NCBI GenBank assembly: GCA_035543435.1 | Contig: DATKKD010000047.1 | Location: 1-56,003 of the forward strand | Direction: 5' to 3' | Source: Thermoplasmatota archaeon | GTDB taxonomy: Archaea > Thermoplasmatota > E2 > DHVEG-1 | DNA length: 56,003 nucleotides | Part shown: piece by piece, positions 38,850 to 56,003 of the stretch | Position numbering within the stretch: the first letter of the stretch is position 1 | How the letters are laid out: each line of letters starts with the position of its first letter | Made by a program: the position numbers and the translations under genes | The notes under the pieces: model-generated | Seen by the model: the letters and a program-made list of their open reading frames with translations, nothing else | Database searches by the model: none | What the model was told of the DNA's origin: nothing

Positions 38850-38946
38850 CGACTGGCTCTATAATCCTCGCTGTTATATAAGAATTCTTAAAAAATCTGG
38901 GATATTTGCAAATCGTTTTATAATTTCCTTCCCATTCATTTCCGAG

Positions 38947-39663: not shown

Positions 39664-39741
39664 GAACTTTTCATCAACAATAATTTTTTGGATAGGAATT
39701 CTTATAAATCTCTCGTATTTTACAGAATACTCAATGTGGAG

Positions 39742-42378: not shown

Positions 42379-42426
42379 ACAGAGAGTCGCCATCTGTCGC
42401 TCGCAAAGTAAATGGCTTCCACGGTC

Positions 42427-42435
42427 TTTTTTTTT
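42427..42435 (+). terminator. oligo-T tract downstream of 39742..42378
   Basis: T9 run 49 nt after the stop codon, in the convergent gap. Archaeal terminators are typically oligo-T. Confidence 0.4.
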
Positions 42436-42498
42436 CAGTAGATGTCTCGGTGGCATTGCGTTTCTGTCACCGGCTGGTCTCATTTAAAAGAGTCCTGT

Positions 42499-44679
42499 TC
42501 AGTGAAGAAGAAACCGTAAGAATGGAAATGCATGTGGAAACCGCTCCAGCAGCCGCTCGAGGAATCGACCACCGGGTAGTTCATACGACAGCGGCATGGT
42601 GACTCTGAGAGTCCCCCAGGCGCTTTCATTCCCATAGATGTCTTTTGCCTGACATCGAATAGTGTACACTCCTTTGTTGTTCCAGGTGTGCGACTGATTT
42701 ATAGATAATCCCGAGGGGTACGGCCCAAGCCACCCGCTGCTCGCATTATCCCCCCAGTCAATGCGATAGAACACGGCATCACCCTCCGGATCTGCGGACG
42801 ACACCGTGTAGGTCACGGGTGTCCCGGTTTTCGCCTTCGCTGGTCCCGTGATCAGCGGCGTCTCAGGTGCGGTGTTGTTCATTGAAATCAAGGCCCACGT
42901 GGCATCGAACGCGGTCGCACCTTCCTCGTCCGTGACCTTCAGGACCACGGTGAAGTTACCCGCATCAACATACTCATGTGATACATTCTGGTCCTCGGAG
43001 GATGTCCCGTCACCGAACGTCCAATGGAAATGGTACGGGGGCACCCCGTTCTGCGCGGATCCAGTGAACTGCACCGGGACATCGACCTTCCCAGCATAGG
43101 GCCCATGCGCGTCCGCGATGCAACCCCCGATGATGGTGAAATCCGCAGGGGAGATCGCTTCGGCGGATGATGAAGCAGTATGTACAACAACTTTGATGCG
43201 ACAATGAGAGGAACTAGTTCCAGGGACGCTCCATTGATACCGGCCGTCGTCCGGGATATTTCTTGCGAGGGTAATCCATGGTCCAGAGACGCCGTTCAAA
43301 GACAACTCCAAATCAACCTGCGAGGCGCCTTGGGCTGGTGGGATCGCGGAAAGCCATCGGATGTCACGAACAGAGTTCCCTTTGAAGGTCTCACCGCCAT
43401 GCGGTGATTTCACGTGCACTGACAGCGTCGTGGGCTCGCTCCAGGGGGAAAAGGCGCGTAGGGTGTTCAGCTCCGACGGCCAGCTCCCTTGGTCAATCTG
43501 GATGAGGACGTCCTCACGACCGTCGTGGTCGAAGTCACCATCGATGCGTAACGCTGAATAGTCGCCCGGGGAGCCGACCATGAAGGTCGCATCCGAGATC
43601 CAGTTCCCCGTGCCATCACCGAGATAGACATGGGCGGTGGTCCCGCTGTAGGCGAGGATGTCGAGGGAGCCGTCACCATTCAGGTCACCGCATTGGACAT
43701 TATAATCACCCGTTGTAGGAAGACCTGTGGAGGCTGAGGTCCAAGAGCTGGTTCCTTTGTCGAAGAGGTAGCAGCGGACGCCGAGGTTGTCATAGGCGAT
43801 GATGAGGTCGTCGCAGCCGTCACCGTTGACGTCACCGCGGTCCAGCCCTAACGCGACCGCGCTGGGCAGTCCGTTTTGGGTAAGCGTGAATCCGAAGGCC
43901 CCGTCACCGAGGTATACGTACGTGTTGGCTTTGGTGCCGACGAAATCCATGTTACCGTCAGCATTGATGTCGCAGGCTTTGAGGTCGTTGTTGGTGTTCC
44001 CAAGAGCGTCAGTCCATCGGTGTGTCCAGGTGCCGTCCCCGTTGTTCTTGTAGACATGGTACCCGTTCCCGTAGCCGAAGGATTGAACAATGATATCAAG
44101 GAGGCCGTCGTTGTTGAAATCCGCGAGGTCAATGTTAAACATCCCGTAGGTCTCGCCTCCGGACCCAAGTCCTGTCGCCCATCCTGTCCAGGCAGTACCG
44201 GTACCGTCGCCGAGCGCGGCGCCGACAAGAGTATCGCCATAGCCCGTAGAACCATAGTTATGGTGGATGCCCCAGACGATGTCCGGGTGGCCGTCGAGGT
44301 TCAGGTCGCCGAGCGCGCAGCCACCGTACCCGAAGTCACCGTCTTGATGGACGGTCCAGGTGCCGTCATCATTGTTGAGGTAGACCATGATGCCGTGTTC
44401 CTGGGTGTTGATGTACGGGTTGCCGTGGTCCCCGACGCTTATGATGTCGGGGTTGCCGTCTTGGTTGACATCAAAGAGTTCAAGCTCGGTGTTGCCGCCT
44501 TCCTTGGCCGGGTCATTAAGCCCTGTGGATTTCTCCACGAAGGTGATCTGACTGGTCGTGAGAACCTTAACTGCGTGTAGGCTGTTCTGAGTGATCGAGG
44601 AGCCCAGGGTCATGATGCAGAGAATCGCTATCAAAAAGCTGGCGAAAAGGCGCGTGTCGTGTGTTCTTTTGTTGTTCAT
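42499..44679 (-). CDS. secreted FG-GAP/VCBS-repeat (integrin-alpha-like beta-propeller) protein with PKD domains
   Basis: Signal peptide. Repeated D.N.DG..D motifs (DVNQDGNPDII, DLNLDGHPDIV, DFNNDGLLDIIV, DINADGNMDFV, DVNGDGCDDLII, DLNGDGSLDIL, DFDHDGREDVLI). PKD HFHWTFGDGTSS...FTVVLKVTDEEG. DPEGDAVFYRIDWGD module. Confidence 0.8.
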   Translation of the reverse strand: MNNKRTHDTRLFASFLIAILCIMTLGSSITQNSLHAVKVLTTSQITFVEKSTGLNDPAKEGGNTELELFDVNQDGNPDIISVGDHGNPYINTQEHGIMVYLNNDDGTWTVHQDGDFGYGGCALGDLNLDGHPDIVWGIHHNYGSTGYGDTLVGAALGDGTGTAWTGWATGLGSGGETYGMFNIDLADFNNDGLLDIIVQSFGYGNGYHVYKNNGDGTWTHRWTDALGNTNNDLKACDINADGNMDFVGTKANTYVYLGDGAFGFTLTQNGLPSAVALGLDRGDVNGDGCDDLIIAYDNLGVRCYLFDKGTSSWTSASTGLPTTGDYNVQCGDLNGDGSLDILAYSGTTAHVYLGDGTGNWISDATFMVGSPGDYSALRIDGDFDHDGREDVLIQIDQGSWPSELNTLRAFSPWSEPTTLSVHVKSPHGGETFKGNSVRDIRWLSAIPPAQGASQVDLELSLNGVSGPWITLARNIPDDGRYQWSVPGTSSSHCRIKVVVHTASSSAEAISPADFTIIGGCIADAHGPYAGKVDVPVQFTGSAQNGVPPYHFHWTFGDGTSSEDQNVSHEYVDAGNFTVVLKVTDEEGATAFDATWALISMNNTAPETPLITGPAKAKTGTPVTYTVSSADPEGDAVFYRIDWGDNASSGWLGPYPSGLSINQSHTWNNKGVYTIRCQAKDIYGNESAWGTLRVTMPLSYELPGGRFLERLLERFPHAFPFLRFLLH

Positions 44680-44845
44680 GGTTTATCCCCCTAATGTATA
44701 AAGTGGTGTTGTTTCTTAAACCTTCTGGATGAAGCGAGCCCAACAAAAGGACATTGTGATCGACCTTCAAACTAAAATATAATAAATCTGCATGTATTTT
44801 TTAATCATCTTTATTTACTCAAGCATCCTGATAAGGAGGAGGTGA

Positions 44846-45238
44846 ATGATCATGAAAAATCCGATCACACATTTTGAGATCCCAGCAGACAACATGCAGA
44901 GAGCCAAGAAGTTCTATGAGGCGATTTTCGATTGGAAGATCGAAAAATACGACGAGGATAGCGACTACTGGTTCGTCATGACTTCCGAGGTCGGTGATGA
45001 CGAATGGACCCCAAAGGAGCCAGGGGCGATCAACGGTGGTCTGGTAAAGCGCGATAAGCCAGGGGAACCATTCATAAACTACATCACGGTCGACTCGATC
45101 GACAAGGTTTGTAAGATGATCGAGAAGAACGGCGGGAAGATCATCCAGTCGAAGACCGAGATGGGCGAGTGGGGCTGGTGGGCGACGTTCAAGGACACCG
45201 AAGGCAACGTCTTTGGTTTGTACGAAGAGAGCCAATAG
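44846..45238 (+). CDS. VOC/glyoxalase-family protein
   Basis: NPITHFEIPADNMQRAKKFYEAIFDWK start and C-terminal FKDTEGNVFGLY, typical of VOC proteins. A strong AGGAGGAGGTGA precedes the start. Confidence 0.75.
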   Translation: MIMKNPITHFEIPADNMQRAKKFYEAIFDWKIEKYDEDSDYWFVMTSEVGDDEWTPKEPGAINGGLVKRDKPGEPFINYITVDSIDKVCKMIEKNGGKIIQSKTEMGEWGWWATFKDTEGNVFGLYEESQ

Positions 45239-45342
45239 ACAGACCAAAATTGTTGTGCTGAGGAGAGCGACCCGATTCATTGGAGATGAGGAGCTGCGCT
45301 ACACATAAAAATGATTAATACATAGGTGACGATACGACTGTC

Positions 45343-45858
45343 ATGGGCGTGCTCCAGGACATCCTGAAATCATCGATGAAGCCCAAAGAAAAGCAAGCGA
45401 AGCTCGTTGCGGTGGTGTGCGACGGGACGATAAACGATGACGAATTCATCAAGTTTTTCCGATCAGCTTCCGATGTCGAAAAGGGTGTGTGCGCGGACGT
45501 GATGAAACACGTCGCAGAGGAAAAACCTGAGATTCTCGCACCCTATATGAACATCCTTGTCGGGTACATTAACTATCCTGTGCCGCGGGTGAAATGGGGC
45601 ATCCCTGAAGCGATCGGGAACATGGCAGAGCAATTCCCTGATGAAGTCGTGTTGGCGATCCCACACCTATTACTCAACACGAAGGATGACAGCACCGTGG
45701 TCCGTTGGTGTGCCGCGTATGCGCTGTCGCAAATTGCGCTGTATAATACCAAGAAGCGGAAAGAACTGCTCGCGTTGTTTTCTCAGATCGTTCAGAAGGA
45801 GAAGAACAACGGCGTGAAAAACGTCTACCTGAAAACCTTGAAAAAATTGTCTCAATAG
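45343..45858 (+). CDS. HEAT/ARM-like helical-repeat protein
   Basis: Repeated helical hairpins with PRVKWGIPEAIGNM and VVRWCAAYALSQI (HEAT-like R.WA..ALG signature). Function unknown. Confidence 0.45.
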   Translation: MGVLQDILKSSMKPKEKQAKLVAVVCDGTINDDEFIKFFRSASDVEKGVCADVMKHVAEEKPEILAPYMNILVGYINYPVPRVKWGIPEAIGNMAEQFPDEVVLAIPHLLLNTKDDSTVVRWCAAYALSQIALYNTKKRKELLALFSQIVQKEKNNGVKNVYLKTLKKLSQ

Positions 45859-45920
45859 AACAAGGCTTTGGATAATCGTACTCATGGGTGATGATGGAAT
45901 AGGGCATCCTGGTTTCGGTT

Positions 45921-46238
45921 ATGAAGTATTATGTGTATGTGATTAGGCTTGATGATGCGGTGGCGAGGTCTCGTAAATTTAAGGATCGTAATCCACATAT
46001 GAGAGAAGATCTCCCTTGTTATTATGTTGGTCAGAGTAGCCATCCGCCCGAGATTCGTTTCTGGCAACATAAAAGCGGCTATAAGGGTAACTCTTTTGTG
46101 AAACAATTTGGCTTGGGTCTTTGTCCCCGATTGTATGAGCGTTTCAATCCGATAGCCACTCGTGAAGAAGCTGAGAGGATCGAAACACAGCTAACACAAC
46201 ACCTGCGAATCAGGGGTTATGGTGTGTGGTCTAATTAA
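45921..46238 (+). CDS. stand-alone GIY-YIG nuclease-domain protein
   Basis: YYVYVIRL (GIY-like), CYYVGQS (YIG-like), conserved R...H/K and a distal E (REEAERIE). About 105 aa, like the UPF0213/YhbQ-type proteins. Confidence 0.6.
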   Translation: MKYYVYVIRLDDAVARSRKFKDRNPHMREDLPCYYVGQSSHPPEIRFWQHKSGYKGNSFVKQFGLGLCPRLYERFNPIATREEAERIETQLTQHLRIRGYGVWSN

Positions 46239-46406
46239 AAGTCCCGTACGAAATATAATTACCAAATAGGAACCCATCGATGAGGGATTGGGTGTACACG
46301 TATTTTTTTCAGAAAAAGAGTTCTACTGTCATCACCAGTTTGGTAATTTAAATATTGACATTTAACAAAGTAAGGATGATAATACAGGCCATGTTTTTTT
46401 GTGATT

Positions 46407-47276
46407 TCAGTTTGCAGTACTGACATTATTGAGTTGGACGTTTAAAGCAAGACCGAGGTAAAAGGAGGATCTGTACAGTGATTCGGTTTTAATACCGATA
46501 AAACCGGTGGCGCCTGGGTAGAGATCAGAGTACAGGTGGCTGCCTCCGGGGATGTCGATGGCGAGGGCTCCCTTGAATGTTCCGTTCCAGTCATGAGCGC
46601 CGCCAAATCCGAAGGTATGGACCCAGCCTTCTGAATAGGCGTCGTGCCATTGTCCTTCCCAACTATCCGTCCATGCTTCACCGAAGCTAATAACGTCGAA
46701 GGGAGCTAGGGGAATGAATTGATTGACGAGGTCATCCATCATTATTACGGCGAAGAGGAGGAAGACGAGGGTGTCGTGTTTTTGGAGGAGCCACAAGAGG
46801 GCAAACAGGGAGGCGTACAGAGGCGAAGTAAACCATGTTTGCGTTGTGTGCCCCGTAATGAGGCAGAAGTGGTTGCCGGTCTGTGAATGGTAGATGTTTG
46901 CTTGGGTGTTTCCTCGTTGTGAGATCTGGGCGAGGCGTTCGACCATGTGCTGTGCCTGAGGCAGGGTCATACCTGCGGGGAGAAGGTCGTAGCTATGGAG
47001 GACGCCAACCGCTTCTTTGAAGAGGAGCATGACTTCCTGTTGGGTTGTTGCCTGTGTGAGTCTTGTATGGAAGTTGTTGCAGTACTCTTCGAACTGTTGG
47101 TATTGATAGTCGGTGAGTGAGACGGTCTTCGGTTTATCATTTTGTAAACCGTATGCCACCGTGGTCATTTGGACCGATGAGTGGTGTTGGGTTGCCGTAG
47201 AGATTGTTGGCAAACACGATACTGTGAGAAGTAGTGTTATAGTAAGTATTGCAAAGATTTTCTTTTTTTCCTGCAC
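46407..47276 (-). CDS. hypothetical secreted protein
   Basis: Signal peptide KKIFAILTITLLLTVSCLPTIS. No recognisable domain. Confidence 0.5.
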   Translation of the reverse strand: MQEKKKIFAILTITLLLTVSCLPTISTATQHHSSVQMTTVAYGLQNDKPKTVSLTDYQYQQFEEYCNNFHTRLTQATTQQEVMLLFKEAVGVLHSYDLLPAGMTLPQAQHMVERLAQISQRGNTQANIYHSQTGNHFCLITGHTTQTWFTSPLYASLFALLWLLQKHDTLVFLLFAVIMMDDLVNQFIPLAPFDVISFGEAWTDSWEGQWHDAYSEGWVHTFGFGGAHDWNGTFKGALAIDIPGGSHLYSDLYPGATGFIGIKTESLYRSSFYLGLALNVQLNNVSTAN

Positions 47277-47342
47277 TTTGCTTCCTCCCTCTAAAAGTAA
47301 ATCTTAGTTCATGTATTAATAATTATCTTACAGGAGAAAAAG

Positions 47343-47381
47343 TGCAGGGGGGAGAGACTTCAAATTCAAGTTCAAGTCTCT
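47343..47381 (-). repeat. weak tRNA-3'-end-like copy plus 8-bp hairpin (copy E)
   Basis: aaaaagtgcagggg (47337-47350) matches the A-run + discriminator + acceptor 3' strand of tRNA-Leu. It is followed by the perfect inverted repeat agagactt/aagtctct (47353-47360/47374-47381) where a T arm would be. Confidence 0.4.
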
Positions 47382-47392
47382 TTCCTATGAAA

Positions 47393-47599
47393 TTACCATT
47401 TCATTTTCATTTTTTTCCTTTCAAAATCATCTTCTTTTTGATTAGTAGCTGCTTTTGTTTTCTCTAGGTATTTCTCTAAATCCGACGGACAAATAGCAAC
47501 GATTTCTAATCCGTTATTACCTGTCGTATAATGCATGGTTATGTCATCGGCCTGAAAAACATTACCACATTGATTACAGATATATTTCATGTAGTTCAC
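47393..47599 (-). CDS. 68-aa zinc-ribbon-like small protein
   Basis: CNQCG ... ICPSD motif. Its start overlaps the stop of the upstream RHH gene by 4 nt. Confidence 0.45.
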   Translation of the reverse strand: MNYMKYICNQCGNVFQADDITMHYTTGNNGLEIVAICPSDLEKYLEKTKAATNQKEDDFERKKMKMKW

Positions 47600-47754
47600 T
47601 CCATTTTTCTGCTTAATTTATTATTCTTTATATAGAAATTCGTCATGTAAACTATTTGTCTGCTGTATGGTCTCTCTTCTTCCTTCGCGAGTTTTTTGAT
47701 GAGTTCATTTTCTTGCTTTGTTAATGATATATTCATTCGTATCCTTTTTTGCAT
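47596..47754 (-). CDS. ribbon-helix-helix (CopG/Arc-like) DNA-binding protein, paralog 1
   Basis: MQKRIRMNISLTKQENELIKKLAKEEERPYSRQIVYMTNFY shows beta-strand/helix/helix RHH periodicity. It aligns with 51166..51336 and 51642..51782 (shared AKEE.RP.SRQIV.M). Start chosen by homology (ATG 47754). Confidence 0.6.
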   Translation of the reverse strand: MQKRIRMNISLTKQENELIKKLAKEEERPYSRQIVYMTNFYIKNNKLSRKME

Positions 47755-47765
47755 TGCATACACAA

Positions 47766-47985
47766 AGGTGTAATAATTTTGCATACTTATATGTCTTTCT
47801 ACACAATGATATATACTCCCTACTACGTACCGCTGTCATCCGACTAATTTCAGAAAGGACATGTGAAATCAATGAAAATCGATAAAGAATTTTCAACCTT
47901 TGAGAACGAAAGTAATAAGAAGTTTCGAAATCGACATCACACATTTGACGAAGATTATTACAAAGCGAGATTTGAGAAGTGAATT
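47766..47985 (+). repeat. diverged direct repeat, left copy (partner 49315..49545)
   Basis: gtgtaataatttt.c.....ttatatg.c....acacaatgatatatact is shared almost exactly. Weaker similarity continues for about 150 nt (atcaat.a.a....gataa.ga.ttt ... gaagtg). Confidence 0.6.
47791..47982 (+). pseudogene. possible TAA-interrupted copy of the 49340..49543 small ORF
   Basis: Same frame as the 49340 ORF across the repeat. An in-frame TAA lies at 47845-47847. Downstream my translation ...KGHVKSMKIDKEFSTFENESNKKFRNR... aligns with ...KAWVRSIIADNEFRHVDKETNLRNR.... Confidence 0.25.
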
Positions 47986-48027
47986 GCCTCTTTTGAAATA
48001 AGGAATTTTTTGGAAGCGATCAAGAAC

Positions 48028-49203
48028 ATGAGAGTGGCGATGATTGGCTGGGAGTATCCACCATTTACGGTAGGCGGGTTAGGTACCCATTGTTATGGAC
48101 TGACTCGAAGTCTTTGTAATATGGGTGTGAAAGTAGATTTTTATATGCCTCAAACGAAACATGGCGCAAAAAGTGATTCTTGTAATTTGGTGATTAAAGA
48201 GGTGGGTGAGACCACAGTTTTTCCCTATGATCGTCCTCAAAGCAATGAAATATCTGGCCAGTTCTTTGAAGCTGTTGCTCGTTATAATGCGTTAGTTGTT
48301 GCGAGAGTGAAAGGTAAGTATAACATCATTCATTGTCACGATTGGCTTACGATTCAAGCAAGTATCGCGCTAAAGGATCTTCTGGACATTCCTTTGGTTC
48401 TTACGGTTCATTCAACGGAGTATGACCGATGTGGCTGGCTTCATCCCAATCAATGGTTCATTGATGTTGAACGAGGAGGAATGGAAAAAGCTGATAAAAT
48501 TATCGCGGTGAGTCAATTTACGAAAAGAACGATGATTGAAAAATACGGGATAGATCCTGAGAAGATCACTGTCATTTATAACGCGGTGTACCCGATCTCT
48601 GAAGGAGAGAAGCAGAAACTTGTTTTGTTTTTAGGTCGCCTGACCATTCAGAAGGGTGCTGAGGTGTTTCTCCGCGCAGCAAAGAAAGTGACAGAATTTG
48701 AACCCGGTGTTCGATTTGTAGTCGCTGGTGCCGGTGATCTACTCCCTCAGTTAATCAATCAGGCTGTTGAGTTGGGCATCTCGAACAGGGTAATTTTTAC
48801 GGATCGTCTTACTGATGATGAAATGAAACATATCTATGGTATTGCGAGTGTGTATGTGATGCCCTCAGTGAGTGAACCTTTTGGCATCACTGCCTTGGAG
48901 GCGATCTCTGCAGGTACTCCCACGATTGCTTCGAAAACCGCAGGCGTCTGCGAGACGTTCCATAACTGTTTAAAGGTTGATTTCTGGGATGCTGACGAGA
49001 TAGCAAACAAGATCATATCGGTATTACGATATGAATCGTTAAGTAAAGCACTCATAAAGAATGGGAGGCAGGAAATTGAACTTTTTACTTGGGATAAGGT
49101 TGCTGAAAAAACACTCGATGTGTATGACGGTCTCAATGTTGCGAGATTGAAAAAACAGCTTGAGGAGAGAGAAAGGATATACAAGTTGAATACAACCTCC
49201 TAA
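48028..49203 (+). CDS. GT4-family glycosyltransferase (glycogen/starch-synthase-like N-terminus)
   Basis: MRVAMIGWEYPPFTVGGLGTHCYGLTRSL start (ATG 48028). HCHDW motif. C-terminal GT-B motif EPFGITALEAISAGTPTIAS. Confidence 0.8.
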   Translation: MRVAMIGWEYPPFTVGGLGTHCYGLTRSLCNMGVKVDFYMPQTKHGAKSDSCNLVIKEVGETTVFPYDRPQSNEISGQFFEAVARYNALVVARVKGKYNIIHCHDWLTIQASIALKDLLDIPLVLTVHSTEYDRCGWLHPNQWFIDVERGGMEKADKIIAVSQFTKRTMIEKYGIDPEKITVIYNAVYPISEGEKQKLVLFLGRLTIQKGAEVFLRAAKKVTEFEPGVRFVVAGAGDLLPQLINQAVELGISNRVIFTDRLTDDEMKHIYGIASVYVMPSVSEPFGITALEAISAGTPTIASKTAGVCETFHNCLKVDFWDADEIANKIISVLRYESLSKALIKNGRQEIELFTWDKVAEKTLDVYDGLNVARLKKQLEERERIYKLNTTS

Positions 49204-49314
49204 AATCATAAAAAGAATTGATACAAGCATTTTTACGATGAACACCTTACGGTATTTTTCTCCATATTTTTATTGATTTTAAAGAAGTATTTTTAAGAAC
49301 TTTGTTTTACATAA

Positions 49315-49545
49315 ATGTGTAATAATTTTACGCATTTATATGCCTCAATACACAATGATATATACTACATCCCGCATACACCTTTTATCCAACACACATA
49401 GGAAAGCGTGGGTGAGATCAATCATAGCGGATAACGAGTTTAGGCACGTCGATAAGGAGACGAACCTGAGGAATCGAAAACATCTTCAAGCTTTAATAAC
49501 AAGTGACTTTAGACGAGTAATATTTACGAAGTGCGTGGATTAGTT
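49315..49545 (+). repeat. diverged direct repeat, right copy (partner 47766..47985)
   Basis: See 47766..47985. The two copies bracket the glycosyltransferase gene. Confidence 0.6.
49340..49543 (+). CDS. hypothetical 67-aa protein encoded inside the repeat
   Basis: Track ORF. The only support is its partial conservation in the left repeat copy. Confidence 0.3.
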   Translation: MPQYTMIYTTSRIHLLSNTHRKAWVRSIIADNEFRHVDKETNLRNRKHLQALITSDFRRVIFTKCVD

Positions 49546-49636
49546 TCGCATTTAACGCTAGAAAAAAACGGTAAGATATACGAAATAGCAAGGGCGATCA
49601 TATCGTCAAAATCTCTTTTAAAGGAGGAGAAATGAC

Positions 49637-49927
49637 ATGGTATGTTGTGAAGAATGTGATAAGGAATTAGGTGTTCTACAAAGGTATCGTCATCCTGCTT
49701 TAGGGATAAGATTCTTGGTTTGCGGGAAATGTTTTGAGAAGATAGACAAAGACATGGAACGATGGAGAACATTTTGTCTTTCGGATTCATTCAACGCAGA
49801 ATCATCCAAGATTGACATCCAAGAGGCATGGAATAAAAATATCTCAAATGACCCGTTGCTACAAAAATGGTTTTGTAATCTTTGGATTAAAATAGAATCT
49901 CAACCGTGTAGACATTCAATCCAGTAA
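49637..49927 (+). CDS. 96-aa zinc-ribbon protein
   Basis: AAGGAGGAG lies 7 nt upstream. Motifs CEECDK ... CGKC. Confidence 0.5.
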   Translation: MVCCEECDKELGVLQRYRHPALGIRFLVCGKCFEKIDKDMERWRTFCLSDSFNAESSKIDIQEAWNKNISNDPLLQKWFCNLWIKIESQPCRHSIQ

Positions 49928-50037
49928 CGTAATTAACGAAAAAAATATCATTAGCCCGTTCATGTCAACGACACCCATAAAAACATGGGGTACATTTACT
50001 GGATAACCATTTAAACTAAGGTATCGGTGATTGTATT

Positions 50038-50283
50038 TTGATAAATGAAAAAGATGAATTTGTTGAACGATCTCATAATAAATTTCTTCAAATGGCTAAG
50101 GATTTTGTTGCGGTATGTCCAAAATGTAAAAGTAAGAAGGTTACCATCAGAAAAAGAAAGTCGCCTAAATATAGATGTCACGATTGCGGCAATGAATTTC
50201 ATGATCCTAAGACAAGGATTGTTTACACAACGCAAAAACAAAAAGATGACTTTGGTCGACGATACTCTAATCCTGATGAATAA
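50038..50283 (+). CDS. zinc-ribbon protein (transposase-type Zn-ribbon-like)
   Basis: CPKCKSKKV...KYRCHDCGNEF resembles the N-terminal Zn-ribbon of IS1/IS1595-type transposases, but no transposase body follows. The track start is TTG; an alternative ATG is at 50092. Confidence 0.45.
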   Translation: MINEKDEFVERSHNKFLQMAKDFVAVCPKCKSKKVTIRKRKSPKYRCHDCGNEFHDPKTRIVYTTQKQKDDFGRRYSNPDE

Positions 50284-50358
50284 ATGACCACTTGATTTTT
50301 TATTTTTCAATTTTACTGAAAATCTCCATTAAAGGAAAAATTATTATAAGAGGATTGT

Positions 50359-50490
50359 ATGGAAGATACCAAAATGAAGTGGCGTTGTAAAAGTTGTGGA
50401 ACATATTTTGATGAGTTATCAGATTTATCGATTTGTCCAATTTGTAATTCAAAGAGGATTGAAAGGATCTCTGAGGATAAACGTGACTGA
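50359..50490 (+). CDS. 43-aa rubredoxin-like zinc-ribbon mini-protein
   Basis: Not in the track. My translation is MEDTKMKWRCKSCGTYFDELSDLSICPICNSKRIERISEDKRD. AGAGGA lies upstream. Confidence 0.4.
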   Translation: MEDTKMKWRCKSCGTYFDELSDLSICPICNSKRIERISEDKRD

Positions 50491-50580
50491 AAATAATCAT
50501 GTATTTGTCTAGGTTTCATTGTTCTTTAGAATATACTCCGAGAATCCTGTTTCAAGATTAAAATGAATCATTCTTTTGGA

Positions 50581-50799
50581 TCAGTTGTTGCAATGGAATT
50601 TTAGCCCTGTTACTGTCGAGGTATATAATATACCATGTATTGTTCTAATTTTATGAATAACGATTTCTCCGATGCTTTCATAATCTTCTGCTTCAATTTT
50701 TGCTATAAAATCGTATTCTTCAAATAACGGATGAAGTTCGATAATCTCAGGGAGTTTCGAGTTTATTGAATACATCATTTTCATGCAATGGTGGAACAT
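50581..50799 (-). CDS. stand-alone Lrp/AsnC ligand-binding (RAM) domain protein
   Basis: The pattern ...IELHPLFEEYDFIAKIEAEDYESIGEIVIHKIRTIHGILYTSTVTGLKF follows the RAM-domain pattern (G.yD....v...d...l..fv...i..i.GV..T.T). There is no HTH. Confidence 0.5.
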   Translation of the reverse strand: MFHHCMKMMYSINSKLPEIIELHPLFEEYDFIAKIEAEDYESIGEIVIHKIRTIHGILYTSTVTGLKFHCNN

Positions 50800-51165
50800 G
50801 TACCATCTTTATTTCTCCTTATGTATCAGGGATGTACGGTCAGATAGAGATTTTCATAATTGGTTCTGCAAACCCCTCTGTTATTTGTTTATCTGAAGTG
50901 TATATCATTGGAGGGATGGGAAGGGACGAGGGGGAGAGGAGAGTGATTAGGATGGGATGCATTTTTAAAAGAGAATCCCTCATCCCTTAGTGTTTTATCT
51001 GAGTGTTAAAGGTTGTTGACTTGGATTGTGTTTCAAGTTCCCCCAACAATCAACGACATACGTATTGCATAACAGTATTTAAATGTATGCTTAAATTAAT
51101 AACAATATGTAAAAATAATTCATTTTGATTCATTGTTATACATTATTATTTAGAAATATTTAAAA

Positions 51166-51336
51166 ATGAATGAAGAATATGGCGATACGATTCCCATGGT
51201 AAAAAGAACAACGATAAGCCTCACAGAAGGAGAAATCAGACAACTGCATGAAATAGCGAAAGAAGAACATCGACCTATCAGTCGCCAGATCGTTCACATG
51301 ATGGAAATCTATAAAAAACAACGCAAAGAAAAATAA
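51166..51336 (+). CDS. ribbon-helix-helix protein, paralog 2
   Basis: Not in the track. My translation is (MNEEYGDTIP)MVKRTTISLTEGEIRQLHEIAKEEHRPISRQIVHMMEIYKKQRKEK. By homology the real start is probably ATG 51196. Confidence 0.55.
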   Translation: MNEEYGDTIPMVKRTTISLTEGEIRQLHEIAKEEHRPISRQIVHMMEIYKKQRKEK

Positions 51337-51641
51337 TTCCCCCGCATCCTTTTCAATCCTAACTACTTTTATCTTTGGTACAACAGAGTATTAGAGAGAT
51401 GAAGGTTTGGAAGATATTTGCTGGGAAGTGTCATTAAAAGAAACCTTCGCTCTCTCTTGGTATTTCCTTCTCCCTATTTCTGAATTGTTGTGTTTCCATC
51501 GCACTGATACAATCAGGAGTTTCCATAACGCATAATAGTATTTATAGTTATGCACAAGGTTATATAAATTATATGCACATTAATTAACTTTGCATAATAT
51601 TCGTCCGAATGAAAACCTAAGAATGTCCGGGGGAGAATCCA

Positions 51642-51782
51642 ATGATAAAGAGAACAACGATAAGTCTTCATGTGGAAGATATCGGACTACTAAAAAAATT
51701 AGCGAAAAAGGAACATCGACCTATCAGCAGCCAGATTGTCCATATGATGGAATTTTATAGAAAGAACCATGAAGAAATATAA
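51642..51782 (+). CDS. ribbon-helix-helix protein, paralog 3
   Basis: Not in the track. GGGGGAG is 7 nt upstream. My translation is MIKRTTISLHVEDIGLLKKLAKKEHRPISSQIVHMMEFYRKNHEEI. Confidence 0.6.
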   Translation: MIKRTTISLHVEDIGLLKKLAKKEHRPISSQIVHMMEFYRKNHEEI

Positions 51783-51886
51783 AAAAGATCTAAAACCGAG
51801 AAAAAAGGGTTTACCTACTATGAAGAACTCCAATTTCCATGCTAATGCCTATCATTTAAATAAAAGTATTTATTTTATATGTTCTT

Positions 51887-51917
51887 GTGGGGAAGGGATC
51901 ACAAATTTGCAAGTAAA
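51887..51917 (-). repeat. degenerate tRNA-3'-half-like copy (copy F)
   Basis: gtggggaagggatcacaaatttgcaagta compared with caggggaagggatttaaacctcaatttgccggta of copy C, 50 nt away. Confidence 0.35.
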
Positions 51918-51937
51918 TTCATCACGATTCATTAGTT

Positions 51938-51987
51938 CAGGGGAAGGGATTTAAACCTCAATTTGCCGGTACGATAAGGATTGACAG
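51938..51987 (-). repeat. tRNA-Leu 3'-half-like fragment (att-like copy C)
   Basis: 44/50 identical to 53298..53347 by hand alignment. The first 20 nt correspond to the acceptor 3' strand + T arm of tRNA-Leu. Confidence 0.7.
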
Positions 51988-52002
51988 ATGATTTTCTCTT
52001 TT

Positions 52003-52509
52003 CTATTTAAGATTCTTTTGAAGTTTTACTTTTTTATATAAAAATTGGATGGCGCCTCCAACAATAAAACCGGGTAAAATAAAAATTCCAAAAGCAAATA
52101 GCACTACGATTATGAGAAATAACGCATCACCGATATAACCCATTATACCCTCCCATGCGTAATGTTGCATTCTTGGGGCGACTAGATAGTCCCAATTTGC
52201 TAAAAGTGTAATGATAGCATAAAAAAATAAAGTAATAATACCTACAAATAAACTCGTCAAAAAAATATGAACACTTTTTTGGATTTTTGTTAGATAAATT
52301 ACTAATGCCCCACATCCCACTCCAATCATAAATGATGCTATCAGAAAAATAACGGGTGCAAATGTATTTCCCAAATTTCCCCATTTTATTAAACCCAAAC
52401 TAGTGTTCTTACCTGAAGCATCTAAAATAAACATACTACTAATGAGGGTAGTACCTATGAGAATACAGAGTAAAATAGATCCTATTTGCTTTGGTTTTAT
52501 TTTCATCAT
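52003..52509 (-). CDS. hypothetical polytopic membrane protein
   Basis: 168 aa with about 5 hydrophobic helices. AT-rich codon usage like the rest of the island. Confidence 0.5.
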   Translation of the reverse strand: MMKIKPKQIGSILLCILIGTTLISSMFILDASGKNTSLGLIKWGNLGNTFAPVIFLIASFMIGVGCGALVIYLTKIQKSVHIFLTSLFVGIITLFFYAIITLLANWDYLVAPRMQHYAWEGIMGYIGDALFLIIVVLFAFGIFILPGFIVGGAIQFLYKKVKLQKNLK

Positions 52510-52585
52510 TTTTTTACTGTTAATAATAATCTCTTAACTTACCATAAAACTATCTTATGGTGTCCCTTTGAATCTAATAAAAAAT

Positions 52586-52604
52586 TGCAGGGGGGGATTT
52601 GAAC
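52586..52604 (-). repeat. tRNA-Leu 3'-end fragment (att-like copy D)
   Basis: tgcagggggggatttgaac equals tgcaggggaagggatttgaac of the tRNA apart from a 2-nt deletion. It is preceded by the same A-run. Confidence 0.6.
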
Positions 52605-52706
52605 GCCACTTTCATATTAAAAAATATGATTTTCTCCCGTTGATAAAAAAGAGTCATTTAATATGTAATTAATTGTTTTGAAATTGCAAATTAATGAGGT
52701 GCTAAT

Positions 52707-52913
52707 TTGAAATATAGATGGAAAAGACATGTAACAAATACGTTGCTCTATGCAATAATCATAACAGCAATAATGGGAATAATCAGACAATACACAAGGG
52801 AAGGTACGATTATTTTCGCTATTGTAAGCGTTGTTGCACCTGCTGCAGACCGATTAGTAGAGAACAAACACTTGAAAGAATTGGAGGACAAGGGTATTTC
52901 TCCCAAACCATAA
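52707..52913 (+). CDS. hypothetical small membrane protein
   Basis: Track ORF with a TTG start and two hydrophobic segments. Weak support. Confidence 0.3.
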   Translation: MKYRWKRHVTNTLLYAIIITAIMGIIRQYTREGTIIFAIVSVVAPAADRLVENKHLKELEDKGISPKP

Positions 52914-52979
52914 ATGGTTGGCTTCCCTCTTCATTTATCGTAAAATTAACGTCAATTCCCCTGTTGCCAAGCAATTATA

Positions 52980-53210
52980 TTATTTTTCCAGGAGCCTTTG
53001 ATACGGCAATTTAGTCTTCTTAAATATAGTAAGAAATAATAGACATATAGACATTATTATTATCGAAACTGCAAGCATAATCCAATCATATTGAATAGGA
53101 TGCTGATTATAAGTTGTTTTGATAATATTAAAGATACTCATTAATCCAATTCCAGCAAAGAAACTAATAGCTACAATCAACCAACGGTTCCTTTTTTGTT
53201 CTCCATCCAT
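52980..53210 (-). CDS. hypothetical small membrane protein
   Basis: 76 aa with two clear TM helices (WLIVAISFFAGIGLMSIFNII, WIMLAVSIIIMSICLLFLTIF). Confidence 0.4.
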   Translation of the reverse strand: MDGEQKRNRWLIVAISFFAGIGLMSIFNIIKTTYNQHPIQYDWIMLAVSIIIMSICLLFLTIFKKTKLPYQRLLEK

Positions 53211-53288
53211 CTTTTTAACCTTATGAAAAAAGAGGTTCTTTGGTTATTTAAACATTTGTTAGGTCGAAATCATCCCTGATGAAACGAA

Positions 53289-53347
53289 AAAAAAGTGCAG
53301 GGGAAGGGATTTGAACCCCAGTTTACCAGTACGACAAGGATTGACAG
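53289..53347 (-). repeat. tRNA-Leu 3'-half-like fragment (att-like copy B)
   Basis: 53289-53318 is identical over 30 nt to 55414-55443 (A-run, discriminator, acceptor 3' strand, T arm). It then continues as a diverged variable-arm/anticodon-stem-like sequence shared with copy C. Confidence 0.75.
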
Positions 53348-53356
53348 TGTAACTTA

Positions 53357-55282
53357 TCAGAAGAACTTCCATACTGTTATACTTGCCTGTATGGTTTTCC
53401 CTGAGTTATCATAAGCAATCACGGTAATAGTATGTTTGGAAAATGAAGGAGTCATCCAAGTCCAGACATATGGTGCATCGGTATCGGTTGCTTTGAGGGA
53501 ACCGTCGACGGAGAACTCGACATGGTTGATGCCGAGTGGAATTTGGCTGGCTTGGGCCTTGATAGTTATTGGCCCGATTGTGATGCATCGCTTTGGCAAC
53601 CAAAAAACCCTGATATTAAGCAGATAAATCCCATTTTTTGGTTTCGTGATTGAGACAGAAGGGAGTTTGTAACTTATAGAAACACGAGCAGTATCACTGC
53701 TTTGGTTCCCTTCACTATCGGTGACAGTGAAAGTTGCAGTAAAGTTCCCGACGGACGTATAGTTATGGCTTGGGCTTTGCTGGTTCGAGGAGAAACCATC
53801 CCCGAAATCCCAGTTATATGCGTAAGGTGGTAAACCGCCATATACAGTGCCACCAAATTGAATAACAGTTTCATAATAGCCAGTATAAGGGCCATTTGCA
53901 TTAATGTTTAAAGGACCTCGACCGAAAGCATGCATATAACCCCCATAGGATTCATCCCCGATGTAGAGCGTCCCGTCTGGTCCTATCGCGGTCGGAGACT
54001 CTATCCACATACCTAGATGTTTTTCCCATCGCTCTGTACCATTTGAGTTTACAGCAATCATATAACCATGGGATTGATCATCCCAATTAGATGTACCGAA
54101 GTAGGTGGTCCCATCTGCTGTATGGGCGGGCGTAGAACCATAGATATATCGATAATTTCCCGGAGTATAAACCCATTTAATCGTCCCATTTGGGTACACT
54201 GAATAAAGACTACTATCGCCGGCATAGATAGCTCCATCTGGCCCAATAGTTGGGTGCGTCCCGGCTCCAACATCAATTTTCCATTTCATCGTTCCATTAT
54301 TTGGATAAATTGCATAGAGGTTACCATCAAGGGAGACACAGTGGACTGTTCCGTCCTCCTCGACACATGGACCAACTCGGACCCAATTGCCTGTTAAAAA
54401 ACTCCATTTCACGGTCCCATTATTTGGGTAAAATGCGTAAAGATTGTGGTCATGGCTTCCACAATATACTGTACCATCCGGACCGATGGCTGGGGATGAA
54501 AGAACACATGCATTCGTCTTATATTGCCATTTCACTGTTCCATTAGGGTTCATGGCACGGACATAACCATTCCAGTCACCAAAGTAAATGGTTCCATCGG
54601 CGCCTATCGCTGCTGATGAATCTACATCATTCCCTGTGCAATAGCTCCATTTTATGGTTCCATTACTCGCGTACACAGCGTAAAAATAATTCGGCATTCC
54701 CCAGATAGTTCCAAAATAAAGAATGCCATTTTGGTCTATTGCTGGGGTCGTTGTTATTGCTCCACTAAGGTCTGTCAATTTCCATATCAACGTTCCATTT
54801 GGATAGAGTGCATAATAATCACACCAATATTCTCCAAAATAAATACGACCTTGTTGGTCTATGCATGCTCCACCCTCAAAATCAGAACCATAAAATCGCC
54901 ATTTCTCTACACTATCCGTTTTTTGTGGAACAATATAGGGACTTGTGCCAGTATGACGGGTATCATGACTCATCATGGGCCATGAGGAATTTAAAAGCTC
55001 CGAGGATTGTATTGGATTACGAATTTGAGTAGATTCATAATGCAATTCATTCTTACAAACACTTTGAGGATTTAACTGGTCCATATGTTCGAGGATTATA
55101 GGTATTCTTTTTTCGTACTCAAGCCTTTCTTCGAGAGAGTAACTTGTATAATAAGCGTATTCCGAGGCTTGTTGATACCGTCGTTGCTGTAAGGGTATAT
55201 TATCTATTTTTTGTCCATTTGATGGAATGATTGCTGTCCCAATGAACAAGAGAATGATTCCAACCGCCAACCATTTCTTCAT
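53357..55282 (-). CDS. secreted PQQ-like beta-propeller repeat protein with PKD and Ig-like C-terminal domains
   Basis: Signal peptide MKKWLAVGIILLFIGTAIIPS. Repeated ...GT.KW.......SSPAIG.DGT.Y.G..D..LYA..PNGT.KW blades. PKD YNWDFGDGFSS...FTATFTVTDSEGN. Confidence 0.75.
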   Translation of the reverse strand: MKKWLAVGIILLFIGTAIIPSNGQKIDNIPLQQRRYQQASEYAYYTSYSLEERLEYEKRIPIILEHMDQLNPQSVCKNELHYESTQIRNPIQSSELLNSSWPMMSHDTRHTGTSPYIVPQKTDSVEKWRFYGSDFEGGACIDQQGRIYFGEYWCDYYALYPNGTLIWKLTDLSGAITTTPAIDQNGILYFGTIWGMPNYFYAVYASNGTIKWSYCTGNDVDSSAAIGADGTIYFGDWNGYVRAMNPNGTVKWQYKTNACVLSSPAIGPDGTVYCGSHDHNLYAFYPNNGTVKWSFLTGNWVRVGPCVEEDGTVHCVSLDGNLYAIYPNNGTMKWKIDVGAGTHPTIGPDGAIYAGDSSLYSVYPNGTIKWVYTPGNYRYIYGSTPAHTADGTTYFGTSNWDDQSHGYMIAVNSNGTERWEKHLGMWIESPTAIGPDGTLYIGDESYGGYMHAFGRGPLNINANGPYTGYYETVIQFGGTVYGGLPPYAYNWDFGDGFSSNQQSPSHNYTSVGNFTATFTVTDSEGNQSSDTARVSISYKLPSVSITKPKNGIYLLNIRVFWLPKRCITIGPITIKAQASQIPLGINHVEFSVDGSLKATDTDAPYVWTWMTPSFSKHTITVIAYDNSGKTIQASITVWKFF

Positions 55283-55410
55283 CTATTTCCTGCCCCTATA
55301 TGAAAATTAAAGACCTCTTCTCTATTTAAAATCTTCCCCGTGTAATTTGTACCGGTATTTAGGAGTTCAAATCATTTTTTAGTATTATGGCATGGTTCAC
55401 CTGGAAAAAT

Positions 55411-55420
55411 AAGAAAAAAG
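55411..55420 (-). terminator. oligo-T tract after tRNA-Leu
   Basis: Plus-strand aagaaaaaag reads CTTTTTTCTT immediately 3' of the discriminator base on the minus strand. Confidence 0.5.
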
Positions 55421-55537
55421 TGCAGGGGAAGGGATTTGAACCCTCGGACTCCTGCGAGACAGGATGTCTCATCGAACCCTTTATTTTAAGATAAGATCTT
55501 AAGTCCTGCGCCGTTGGCCAGGCTTGGCTACCCCTGC
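55421..55537 (-). tRNA. tRNA-Leu(UAA) with a 32-nt intron at the canonical 37/38 position
   Basis: Hand fold of the reverse complement: GCAGGGG TA GCC AAGCCTGGCCAAC GGC G CAGGA CTTAAG[intron]A TCCTG TCTCGCAGGAGTCC GAGGG TTCAAAT CCCTT CCCCTGC A. This gives a long variable arm, an 85-nt mature length and no encoded CCA. Confidence 0.85.
55466..55497 (-). other. tRNA-Leu intron
   Basis: Intron ATCTTATCTTAAAATAAAGGGTTCGATGAGAC. Its ATCTTAA segment can pair with the anticodon-loop TTAAGAT, as expected for a bulge-helix-bulge substrate. The boundary is ambiguous by 1 nt. Confidence 0.7.
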
Positions 55538-55543
55538 AATAGG

Positions 55544-55615
55544 TGCGGATGCCGGGACTCGAACCCGGGCTGAAGGCTTGGAGGGCCCTAATCATAACCG
55601 CTAGATCACATCCGC
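55544..55615 (-). tRNA. tRNA-Gly(UCC)-like, with C at position 33
   Basis: Hand fold: GCGGATG TG ATCT AGCGGTTA TGAT T AGGGC CCTCCAA GCCTT CAGC CCGGG TTCGAGT CCCGG CATCCGC A. A GCG acceptor start with A73 fits Gly identity. The anticodon assignment depends on the loop register. Confidence 0.7.
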
Positions 55616-55690
55616 AGGCCACAGGAGAAATAACTTTTCCATTTTAGTAATTTGCCATATTAAAAAAAAGAGATATTAATTGTCCTGATA

Positions 55691-55837
55691 TCAGGCTATA
55701 CCTGGATCGTATTTGTCCTCTTCTTCAGGAGTATATCGTTGTTTTTGAGTAGCTTTGCAATTTTCGCAGATACCCTCTTCTTCCTCTTCAGGATCTAACT
55801 CTTCACCACAAATTTCACAATATGCTGTCATAGTCAT
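55691..55837 (-). CDS. 48-aa acidic zinc-ribbon mini-protein
   Basis: Not in the track. GGTGA is 6 nt upstream. My translation is MTMTAYCEICGEELDPEEEEEGICENCKATQKQRYTPEEEDKYDPGIA. Confidence 0.35.
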   Translation of the reverse strand: MTMTAYCEICGEELDPEEEEEGICENCKATQKQRYTPEEEDKYDPGIA

Positions 55838-56003
55838 CTCACCTAATATTTACAAAATCAGAAACGTTTTCAATATTTATAATTTTGGTTGATTTGGTCG
55901 TATAATTTATTATAAATATTTTTTTTAGAAAAATAAAAAGTTATAATTAATAATAGGAAAACGTATACAGGTTGTGTTTGGTCAACATGAAAAAAGTGAA
56001 AAA

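Follow-up and report, generated by a model that had tools for sequence, protein, structure and literature searches.

Integration by a tyrosine recombinase into the 3' end of a tRNA gene, followed by tandem accretion, is a known class of mechanism. In tRNA-targeting integrative elements, as in the scheme of Williams (2002) and in the Methanosarcina elements MGE1 and MGE2 (PMC4779613), the core of the attachment site is the tRNA 3' end, and the tRNA is regenerated upon insertion. A displaced fragment is found at the far end, and tandem elements arise by reuse of the site (PMC4779613). These traits are shared by a locus in a stretch of 56,003 nucleotides (nt) from a Thermoplasmatota archaeon (GTDB lineage E2; DHVEG-1; assembly GCA_035543435.1, contig DATKKD010000047.1, positions 1 to 56,003), the whole of which is called the window here. 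The region at 46.3-55.4 kilobases (kb) of the window is probably a tandem array of six or seven non-autonomous cassettes, inserted serially at the 3' end of a tRNA-Leu(UAA) gene and mobilised in trans. The array occupies about 9 kb of the window, adjoins the tRNA-Leu and is made mostly of one-gene cassettes. Unlike tRNA-targeting elements, units of the type found in the window are 0.4-2.6 kb long, usually carry one gene and lack an integrase; at least seven cassettes can stand in a row, and their arms are conserved over unrelated cargo. The array has flanking direct repeats of the tRNA end and an intact tRNA, and it cannot be classed as an autonomous integrative element because it has no integrase of its own.

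The closest functional analogues are the gene-poor streptococcal cis-mobilisable elements (CIMEs) and the islands that are flanked by tRNA or tmRNA genes in Prochlorococcus and Dehalococcoides. CIMEs, which have been described from the accretion of ICEs (integrative and conjugative elements) as well as integrative and mobilisable elements in Streptococcus (PMC5704250, PMC7563491), and tandems of phages and ICEs (PMC13651849) are likewise bounded by attachment (att) sites and lack recombination genes. CIMEs accumulate in tandem with an autonomous element of the same att, and their mobilisation, one at a time or as a composite, can occur in cis as well as in trans (PMC5704250, PMC7563491, PMC13651849). 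Those systems are bacterial, are linked to conjugation and usually involve one or two units, whereas the arrays considered here have archaeal hosts, many single-gene units and, as putative helper, a plasmid- or virus-like element that carries MCM. As in CIMEs, the cassettes are flanked by att sites and have no recombination or transfer genes, and an autonomous element with the same core is found in tandem or on the same contig (locus L143, and L241 with L139) or at tRNA-Leu (L243).

The tycheposons of Prochlorococcus (bioRxiv 10.1101/2020.12.28.424599) and the ssrA islands of Dehalococcoides (PMC3146451) are similar in that variable islands lie at tRNA or tmRNA genes, with partial copies of the 3' end of the RNA gene and with cargo-only segments beside integrase-bearing elements. 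They differ in integrase families and hosts and consist of multi-gene modules; a regular single-gene cassette with conserved arms was not found described in the abstracts and titles.

In outcome, the arrays look integron-like. In integrons, including those of archaeal metagenome-assembled genomes (MAGs; PMC9668308), most cassettes likewise hold a single open reading frame (ORF), measure about 0.5-1.5 kb and point the same way; every cassette comes with a recombination site, the cargo is accessory, and the newest cassette presumably lies beside the primary site. The present arrays are also mostly of single-ORF cassettes with an orientation bias (141/178 and 68%, as detailed below). Unlike in integrons, the repeats directly copy the 3' end of the tRNA and are not folded attC sites, many cassettes have their own promoter, and the candidate recombinase is XerA-like and encoded on a separate element. 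The arrays fail the defining tests of an integron because there is neither an adjacent intI nor an attC fold.

Two further classes were considered and rejected. The casposons of Methanosarcina also target the 3' end of tRNA-Leu and occur in tandem copies; they have terminal inverted repeats abutted by target duplications of 14-15 bp, and encode Cas1 and PolB (PMC4779613). In the window, the flanks of an inverted 25-mer are not duplicated (53296-53347 compared to 55349-55420), no Cas1 or transposase was matched among the proteins examined with Pfam, and the precomputed Pfam calls for L241-L243 contain no Cas1. Integrative mobile elements exploiting Xer (IMEX) use the host Xer at dif; here the site is the tRNA-Leu 3' end, and the gene for the XerA-like enzyme does not have a housekeeping setting but belongs to mobile elements that also carry MCM and resolvase genes. 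Searches of the full-text literature turned up no account of arrays like these for archaea, which does not prove that none exists.

The tRNA-Leu target and its displaced copies

The intron-containing tRNA-Leu(UAA) that had been predicted from the sequence was confirmed by ARAGORN, run with introns, and by Rfam (41.4 bits). It lies on the minus strand at 55421-55537, with an intron of 32-33 nt after the anticodon loop, and its upstream neighbour is a tRNA-Gly(UCC) on the same strand at 55542-55615 (ARAGORN; Rfam, 57.5 bits). The tRNA-Leu is the intact attachment target, and its final 23 nt (55421-55443) are the shared core, which reads TGCAGGGGAAGGGATTTGAACCC on the plus strand. Exact copies of the core are found at 53296 and 55421, and the copy at 51936 has 3 mismatches; shuffled sequence gave zero matches. 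The 14-mer AAAAAGTGCAGGGG, with an expectation of 0.01, is found at 47337, 52580 (1 mismatch), 53290 and 55415.

The original prediction described recurring copies of the tRNA end in a single orientation, and the copies at 53296, 52586, 51936 and 47343 do share one orientation. The internal attachment-site copy at 53289-53318 (plus strand) consists of an A-run and the exact 23-nt core, and is identical to 55414-55443 at 30 of 30 nt. The reported likeness of 51938-51987 to 53298-53347 holds as an 87% match between 51934-51987 and 53294-53347. The copy with a 2-nt deletion at 52586 (plus strand) was also found, with one substitution as well, and extends to 52606. A site profile made from related loci recovers the copies at 53289, 55414, 51932 and 52579 by nhmmer with E-values of 5e-16 to 5e-5 (3e-9 for 51932-51973; 5.5e-5 for the copy at 52586-52606), and finds an inverted partial core copy on the minus strand at 55349-55373 (E 2e-4). 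Of two weaker copies proposed at the outset, neither is significant alone (E about 3); that at 47337 is validated by the empty-site alignment described below. A further, decayed site was found at 46313-46372. The sites form a gradient: 53296 is exact, 52586 and 51936 have 2-3 changes, 47343 is degenerate and 46313 is nearly erased. This drop in site quality away from the tRNA is what successive insertion at the tRNA predicts.

The accessory region beside the tRNA-Leu was predicted to be AT-rich, and full computation gives a G+C content of 0.368 over 47351-55420, where the highest 1-kb window is at most 0.445, compared to 0.534 over 1-46312, where the lowest is at least 0.435. The compositional shift is real, but its proposed position at 45.9-46.2 kb is not; the G+C content changes abruptly at about 47.3 kb, with a sharp step at 47351.

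Presence and absence in relatives

A scan of species-representative genomes with the 23-mer yielded at least 118 loci, in MAGs of Thermoplasmata, Methanomassiliicoccales and Micrarchaeota. The closest among the matches listed is L011, from "Euryarchaeota archaeon MFD04408.bin.1.91", which has 90% DNA identity to the window over 46335-47350 and 86% over both tRNAs. L011 is a clean empty site for window positions 47351-55420. Its order is a gene for a 289-amino acid (aa) protein, an A-run and the tRNA-Leu, with no segment between them; it tracks the left flank of the window to ...AAAGAG-TGCAGGGG and thereafter reads as tRNA, with the breakpoint inside the core. The 289-aa gene and its L011 ortholog are 88% identical in amino acids and 90% in nucleotides. 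On the far side of this gene L011 has a second exact core copy, such that the gene is the sole unit between two cores. Given this second core and the decayed window site at 46313-46372, the 289-aa gene is an older cassette.

Two metagenome contigs, L001 and L002, were selected by an exact copy of the PQQ-like protein encoded nearest the tRNA in the window. L001 has 99.85% identity to window positions 48213-55439 and ends inside the repeat. L002 has 100.000% identity to the island over 4454 nt (50967-55420), and differs from the window in the tRNA-Gly (5 substitutions), the inter-tRNA spacer (22 versus 5 nt), the tRNA-Leu intron and the far flank, which is unrelated; the identity starts in the 3' exon of the tRNA-Leu. 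Unless L002 is misjoined, one multi-cassette block occupies the same site in two different genomes. The expectation that relatives would vary exactly at the repeat boundaries was thus borne out, by the empty site in L011 and by the block behind a different tRNA flank in L002.

As had also been predicted, the sequence beyond the tRNAs is AT-rich: the 0.4 kb upstream of tRNA-Gly (55616-56003) has a G+C content of 0.29 and contains an ORF for a Cys-rich peptide of 48 aa (55691-55837, minus strand). L002 lacks this stretch and has an unrelated flank in its place, so the tRNA pair has variable sequence on this side as well.

Cassettes in other arrays

Metagenomes were scanned with a pattern of the core end, NNNN and TTACCGGT, which gave at least 120 loci, and pooled statistics were taken over 240 genome and metagenome loci among the matches listed. 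Among those matches, 28 of 118 genome loci have two to four core copies in the same orientation, spaced by 0.6-2.6 kb, 87 of 120 metagenome loci have at least two, and the largest arrays have seven (L139, L157, L209). Arrays are found at the tRNA-Leu isoacceptors UAA, CAA, CAG, GAG and UAG. The median of 222 pooled core-to-core intervals is 878 nt (interquartile range 634-1338), and 8 of these intervals are "empty" at less than 150 nt. Exactly one ORF of at least 60 aa is present in 141 of 178 non-redundant cassettes of 300-3000 nt, and the longest ORF fills a median of 77% of the cassette. The ORFs tend to run in the tRNA sense (120/176, or 68%; p = 1.6e-6), and a hydrophobic N-terminus is encoded by 109 of 176; most of the products are membrane or secreted proteins. 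None of 20 cassette-sized proteins tested beside cores is a recombinase; the families found are M14 carboxypeptidases, NosD/beta-helix, PKD, transglutaminase-like and alpha/beta-hydrolase proteins, as well as MFS, PAS, Fpg, DUF169 and ArsR-type proteins.

Cassettes act as discrete units with boundaries exactly at the cores. For cassette clusters C0, C2, C7, C13 and C18, the neighbours vary from array to array. Cassette C2 has about 93% identity between L157 and L224, bounded exactly by the left and right cores, with unrelated flanks; in L157 its right neighbour is the tRNA itself. Together, the relatives and the cassette statistics support the proposal, made from the window alone, that repeated site-specific integration has produced a cassette array rather than a series of proviruses.

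Two variants of this architecture were seen. In L039 and L065, which are of Methanomassiliicoccaceae type, the arrays repeat about 70 nt, or nearly the whole tRNA-Leu, rather than 23 nt with arms, as though another family of elements, one whose att is longer, used the same gene. Other arrays end at a core followed by CTGGA(G/C), with no intact tRNA (L214 at 9395, L238 at 4974, L143 at 840, L241 at 9405), and lead into several kb of other genes, which in L241 include peptidases C25, M14 and M28. These ends look like junctions with large elements that have a left arm starting with CTGGA.

Anatomy of the attachment site

The repeat was predicted to be the tRNA 3' end, which is correct as far as it goes, but the repeated unit is larger because there are conserved arms on both sides. 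The arms accompany the non-tRNA copies. The left arm, on the side that faces the 5' part of the tRNA, has a palindrome, TTACCGGTAA or its variants TACATGTA and TAATATTA, three bases past the core. It continues in one of three ways: as ACGACAAGGATTGACAG, found at window positions 53319 and 51959; as AATTCT..GGATAATAATTACTCCTGT, of which the distal part is coding; or as a T-run and then CTCCTGTTGA, found at window position 52607. In many cassettes, the right arm begins with an A-run, has the TATA-like element TTTAAATAA in tRNA sense and includes a conserved 5' untranslated region (5'UTR) that ends in a GGGG-type ribosome-binding site ahead of the cargo start codon. About 20 cassettes, including that nearest the tRNA in the window, have instead a 76-nt module with the inverted 3' half of the core and the palindrome, at a 47-nt spacing. 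Position 22 of the core is changed from C to A in 46 of 404 copies; the variant follows left arms and is almost never found in tRNA copies. Because it moves with the left arm, the crossover is placed within core positions 1-21.

Some candidate components of the site were discarded. The distal part of the type-B arm is not a site component, as it encodes the shared C-terminus DWHPAQEPYDIPGMT. This C-terminus, placed directly before the stop codon, is common to cassette proteins of NosD/beta-helix type (L054, L068, L082, L139, L143, L170 and others), and a conserved 70-nt 3'UTR joins it to the core. The element TTTCTCCTG is neither a ribosome-binding site nor a small ORF, given that frames and start codons are inconsistent. 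A structured RNA or a folded single-strand site was also considered: CAGGGG...CTCCTG can pair, though only with the help of G-U pairs and on the strand antisense to the tRNA, and the Y3 type of right arm contains a 25-nt inverted repeat. This idea is not supported, as RNAalifold found no consensus structure beyond the T-arm hairpin in 68 type-B and 74 type-C sites.

"Empty units" were also observed, in which two cores are 49-72 nt apart (L157 at 368/440; L139 at 5948 and 6384; window at 51887/51936) and a left arm is fused to a short right arm (..CTCCTGTTGGAAnCATATGAA). Their tRNA-sense start, ACAGGAG-TA, resembles the tRNA-Leu 5' end, GCAGGGG-TA, and an empty unit might therefore be a degenerate copy of the whole tRNA.

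Recombinases

The original prediction noted the lack of any recombinase or Sulfolobus spindle-shaped virus (SSV)-type integrase in the window. This was verified by jackhmmer with seeds of both tyrosine and serine recombinases, which matched nothing in all six frames of the 56 kb, and by Pfam, in which no recombinase family was found among the matches of the island ORFs. Concerning SSV-type split integrases, the ORFs that cross the window copies are short and have no integrase similarity. The statement that no integrase is visible is confined to the window, yet integrases that use the same core are present in larger elements elsewhere (L143, L241, L243).

By jackhmmer, tyrosine recombinases are encoded in about 14 of 243 loci (about 1.5 Mb), and most arrays have no recombinase within about 4 kb. 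In L143, L241 and L243 the same module is found, consisting of the core, an overlapping ORF of 180-190 aa and a gene for a XerA-like integrase of 313 aa. In L143, the module is part of an 8.7-kb unit between two cores of an array, with a resolvase gene and a type-B left arm like that of many cassettes. In L241, it leads into a stretch of small ORFs more than 10 kb long, with a PDDEXK nuclease and an SNF2 helicase; L241 and the seven-copy array L139 are on the same 54-kb contig. In L243, it abuts an intact tRNA-Leu and is accompanied by MCM and resolvase genes. The same hosts thus do have autonomous elements with precisely this core.

The XerA-like family has more than 1100 relatives, mainly in metagenomes and Thermoplasmata MAGs. 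In IMG/VR, an exact-core search and a single-sequence integrase search returned nothing, and a profile search gave integrase relatives of 37-51% identity, located 0.6-0.9 kb from tRNA-Ser, tRNA-His or tRNA-Leu(CAA); a TTACnnGTAA palindrome lies beside the core in these contigs.

Two integrases near tRNA-Leu were rejected as array-adjacent, as that of L055 belongs to tRNA-His and that of L135 to an element in tRNA-Gly. The L135 ORF (2143-3042) starts in the 3' part of a tRNA-Gly directly beside the tRNA-Leu, and the N-terminal residues MRAPGIEPEQKAWKA are what the tRNA encodes when translated in reverse complement, such that the att is inside the ORF in SSV style. It is the only such ORF that was found.

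Proposed mechanism and alternatives

In the proposed mechanism, site-specific recombination would add units one by one at the 3' end of tRNA-Leu(UAA), and every insertion would restore the tRNA and shift earlier units outward. Regeneration of the tRNA at each insertion would leave the units separated by tRNA-end copies of 21-23 nt that decay with distance. A unit begins with a left arm, in which a TTACnnGTAA-type palindrome is common; it usually holds a single cargo gene, and it closes with a right arm that often supplies an archaeal TATA box and 5'UTR to that gene. Lacking a recombinase, the units would depend for excision and re-insertion, whether one by one or in blocks, on an integrase acting in trans, for which the top candidate is the XerA-like tyrosine integrase with its partner of about 180 aa, on larger MCM/resolvase elements of the same hosts. 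The action of this integrase on cassettes, a circular intermediate and the order of insertion are what we infer from these comparisons.

A broader proposal is more tentative, and as a joint claim is given somewhat short of an even chance: that the arrays constitute an independent, integron-like capture system, in which tRNA-Leu ends serve for docking and a pool of single-gene cassettes is served in trans by the XerA-like integrase and its partner. In that system, the docking and boundary site would be the final 21-23 nt of tRNA-Leu, for all isoacceptors that share that end, and the environmental cassettes would mostly encode secreted or surface proteins, many with a promoter/5'UTR arm and a palindrome arm. 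If the cassettes are mobilised as proposed, they would provide a second, independently evolved route for modular gene capture in prokaryotes, and the first such in archaea, which would explain the diversification of the secreted and surface proteome in uncultured Thermoplasmata of soil and sediment. With a 23-nt core, defined arms and a candidate integrase and partner, the system is compact and testable, and might serve as an archaeal genetic tool. In practice, the arrays break metagenome assemblies, and island finders based on integrases miss this whole class of mobile DNA.

Several points weigh against the trans-mobilised cassette array as proposed. The XerA-like integrase is tied to the cassettes by the shared core and arm motifs only, as read from sequence, and its association with arrays was judged from loci and contigs. 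No circular or attP-junction form of a cassette was found, with terminal overlaps in 0 of 243 contigs. The conservation of the arms is partly due to the coding C-terminus DWHPAQEPYDIPGMT in type B and to the promoter and 5'UTR in the right arm, and the use of TTACCGGT in the metagenome selection pattern inflates that arm type. The 100% identity of L002 could in principle be due to a misjoin by the assembler across the tRNA exon, of which 52 nt are shared. Finally, the proposal does not explain how a new gene acquires its flanking cores.

The most serious alternative, although an unlikely one, is that the array is the eroded remains of successive full-size proviruses or plasmids that lost their integrase, with the small units as debris. 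Tandem integration and decay are well known at archaeal tRNA genes, as at the tRNA-Leu of Methanosarcina (PMC4779613), decay is seen at the distal sites here, and larger integrase-bearing units are present within the same arrays (L143). In addition, the ribbon-helix-helix (RHH) and Zn-ribbon genes in the 4.5-kb segment D of the window are typical of regulatory modules of plasmids and viruses and have a counterpart in L074. Random erosion, however, would not yield sizes as tight as 634-1338 nt (interquartile range) with one intact ORF that fills about 77% of the unit. Nor would it preserve both arms and a unit's own promoter across unrelated cargo, or put the same unit into different neighbourhoods with identity that ends at the cores; moreover, jackhmmer in six frames found no integrase pseudogene fragments in the window. 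The precise core breakpoints in L011 and in cassette C2 speak against another, quite improbable, account, in which there is no dedicated recombinase and tRNA ends act as portable homology, so that blocks are swapped by homologous recombination or gene conversion after DNA uptake. Such exchange would accommodate the multi-cassette block shared with L002, whose identity begins inside the conserved tRNA exon, and the lack of a visible integrase near most arrays. Yet homologous recombination would hardly be efficient over only 23 nt of identity, the cores lie beside tRNA-Leu and invariably point one way, integrase-bearing elements use exactly this core, and core position 22 moves with the left arm, as a defined crossover predicts.

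It is less probable still that the tRNA-like ends are expression modules, combining a terminator or processing signal with a common promoter, that spread by local duplication among surface-protein genes. The cargo is in the tRNA sense in 68% of cases, such that transcripts would end in the T-arm/acceptor segment and then CTTTTTT, the right arms have a conserved TATA box and 5'UTR, and a C-terminal motif is common to many cargo proteins. Set against this are the 32% of genes in the opposite direction, cargo that is unrelated between cassettes, the existence of gene-less empty units, the lack of an RNAalifold consensus beyond the T-arm hairpin, and the AT-rich, foreign composition with a clean empty site. 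That the array arose as an artefact of metagenome assembly, by collapse of the repeated tRNA end or by a chimeric join there, is hardly credible: the independent assemblies ENA ERZ27256600 and JGI 3300032829 keep the order across the junctions at 53296, 52586 and 51936 with 99.85-100% identity, and more than 100 unrelated contigs are built in the same way, even if L001, which stops inside the repeat at window position 55439, indicates that assemblers do break there.

Cassettes and neighbouring genes in the window

Cassette A (53319-55420) is the unit proximal to the tRNA, and its cargo gene (53357-55282, minus strand) encodes a secreted protein of 641 aa with Pfam matches to PQQ-like beta-propeller, PKD and Big_7. 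Six 21-nt repeats with a period of 108-135 nt at 54170-54800 are coding and correspond to propeller blades of this protein. The left (X) arm, CAGTTTACCAGTACGACAAGGATTGACAG (53319-53347), is common to 51959-51987 and many other loci, and the right (Y) arm (55283-55420) provides a TATA-like box and the 5'UTR for the 641-aa gene. Within the right arm, module Y3 (55349-55420) has the inverted 3' half of the core with the palindrome (55349-55373), then TTCACCTGG and an A-run, with the inverted copy exactly 47 nt from the core; other loci have about 20 nearly identical Y3 arms with this spacing. The right arm reads ...GAAAAATAAGAAAAAAG before the core, and the left arm reads CAGTTTACCAGTACG after it.

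Cassette B (52607-53288) has the type-C left arm CACTTTCATATTAAAAAATATGATTTTCTCCCGTTGA, which is also found in L157, L059 and L139. It carries a gene for a membrane protein of 76 aa (52980-53210, minus strand) with nothing significant in Pfam, a TATA-like box at 53264-53273 and a possible ORF of 68 aa on the plus strand (52707-52913). Cassette C (51988-52585) has a gene for a multi-pass membrane protein of 168 aa (52003-52509, minus strand) with no Pfam match. It is followed by a degenerate double site on the plus strand (51887-51987), composed of a partial core (51887-51911), 49 nt, a core copy (51936-51958) and the arm CAATTTGCCGGTACGATAAGGATTGACAG.

Segment D (47351-51886; G+C about 0.33) is a larger unit, also without an integrase. 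By Pfam, it contains an operon of Zn-ribbon and RHH genes (47393-47599 and 47596-47784, minus strand) and a GT4 glycosyltransferase gene (48010-49203, plus strand). It also has Zn-finger ORFs (49637-49927 and 50038-50283), an ORF that resembles the AsnC C-terminus (50581-50799, minus strand) and further RHH genes on the plus strand (51166-51336 and 51642-51782), which sit in a 148-nt direct repeat of 75% identity. The three small RHH paralogs could be binders of TTACCGGTAA-type arm palindromes. The GT4 gene is flanked by 59-nt direct repeats (47759-47817 and 49308-49366; 83% identity) and has a G+C content of 0.42-0.48, compared to 0.33 for the surrounding segment. Since L074 has a homologous RHH/Zn module without the glycosyltransferase, the GT4 gene looks like a secondary insertion into segment D. 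An Rfam match to MIR5516 at 48290 is spurious (29 bits, with a gathering threshold of 93).

The distal boundary site of the AT-rich block (47337-47350, plus strand) consists of the host-side A-run and TGCAGGGG, beyond which the core is degenerate. Cassette E (46373-47336, minus strand), with a host-like G+C content, is the older unit, and its 289-aa gene (46407-47276) encodes a secreted protein; exact-protein look-ups of this and of the glycosyltransferase returned no record. The decayed site beyond it (46313-46372, plus strand) was recognised when aligned to two intact copies, at L011 5890 and at 53.3 kb of the window; it has lost most of the core but keeps the left arm, CCAGTTT..GGTAATTTAAATATTGACA.

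A GIY-YIG-like gene of 105 aa (45921-46238, plus strand), with a weak Pfam match, is probably the original neighbour at the distal array end. Its orthologs, at 69-73% amino acid identity, are at the distal array end in L064 and are also found in L082. The host flank includes genes for UvrA, UvrC, UvrB, VIT1 and surface proteins with PKD and FG-GAP. In L064 (1787-2422), no more than 0.6 kb separates the ortholog of the GIY-YIG-like gene from that of a 158-aa ORF at window positions 38373-38849, and this spacing implies that the 7 kb at window positions 38850-45920 are also variable, though host-like in G+C. That interval contains genes for VIT1, a PKD protein of 896 aa, an FG-GAP/PKD protein of 726 aa, a glyoxalase and a HEAT protein.

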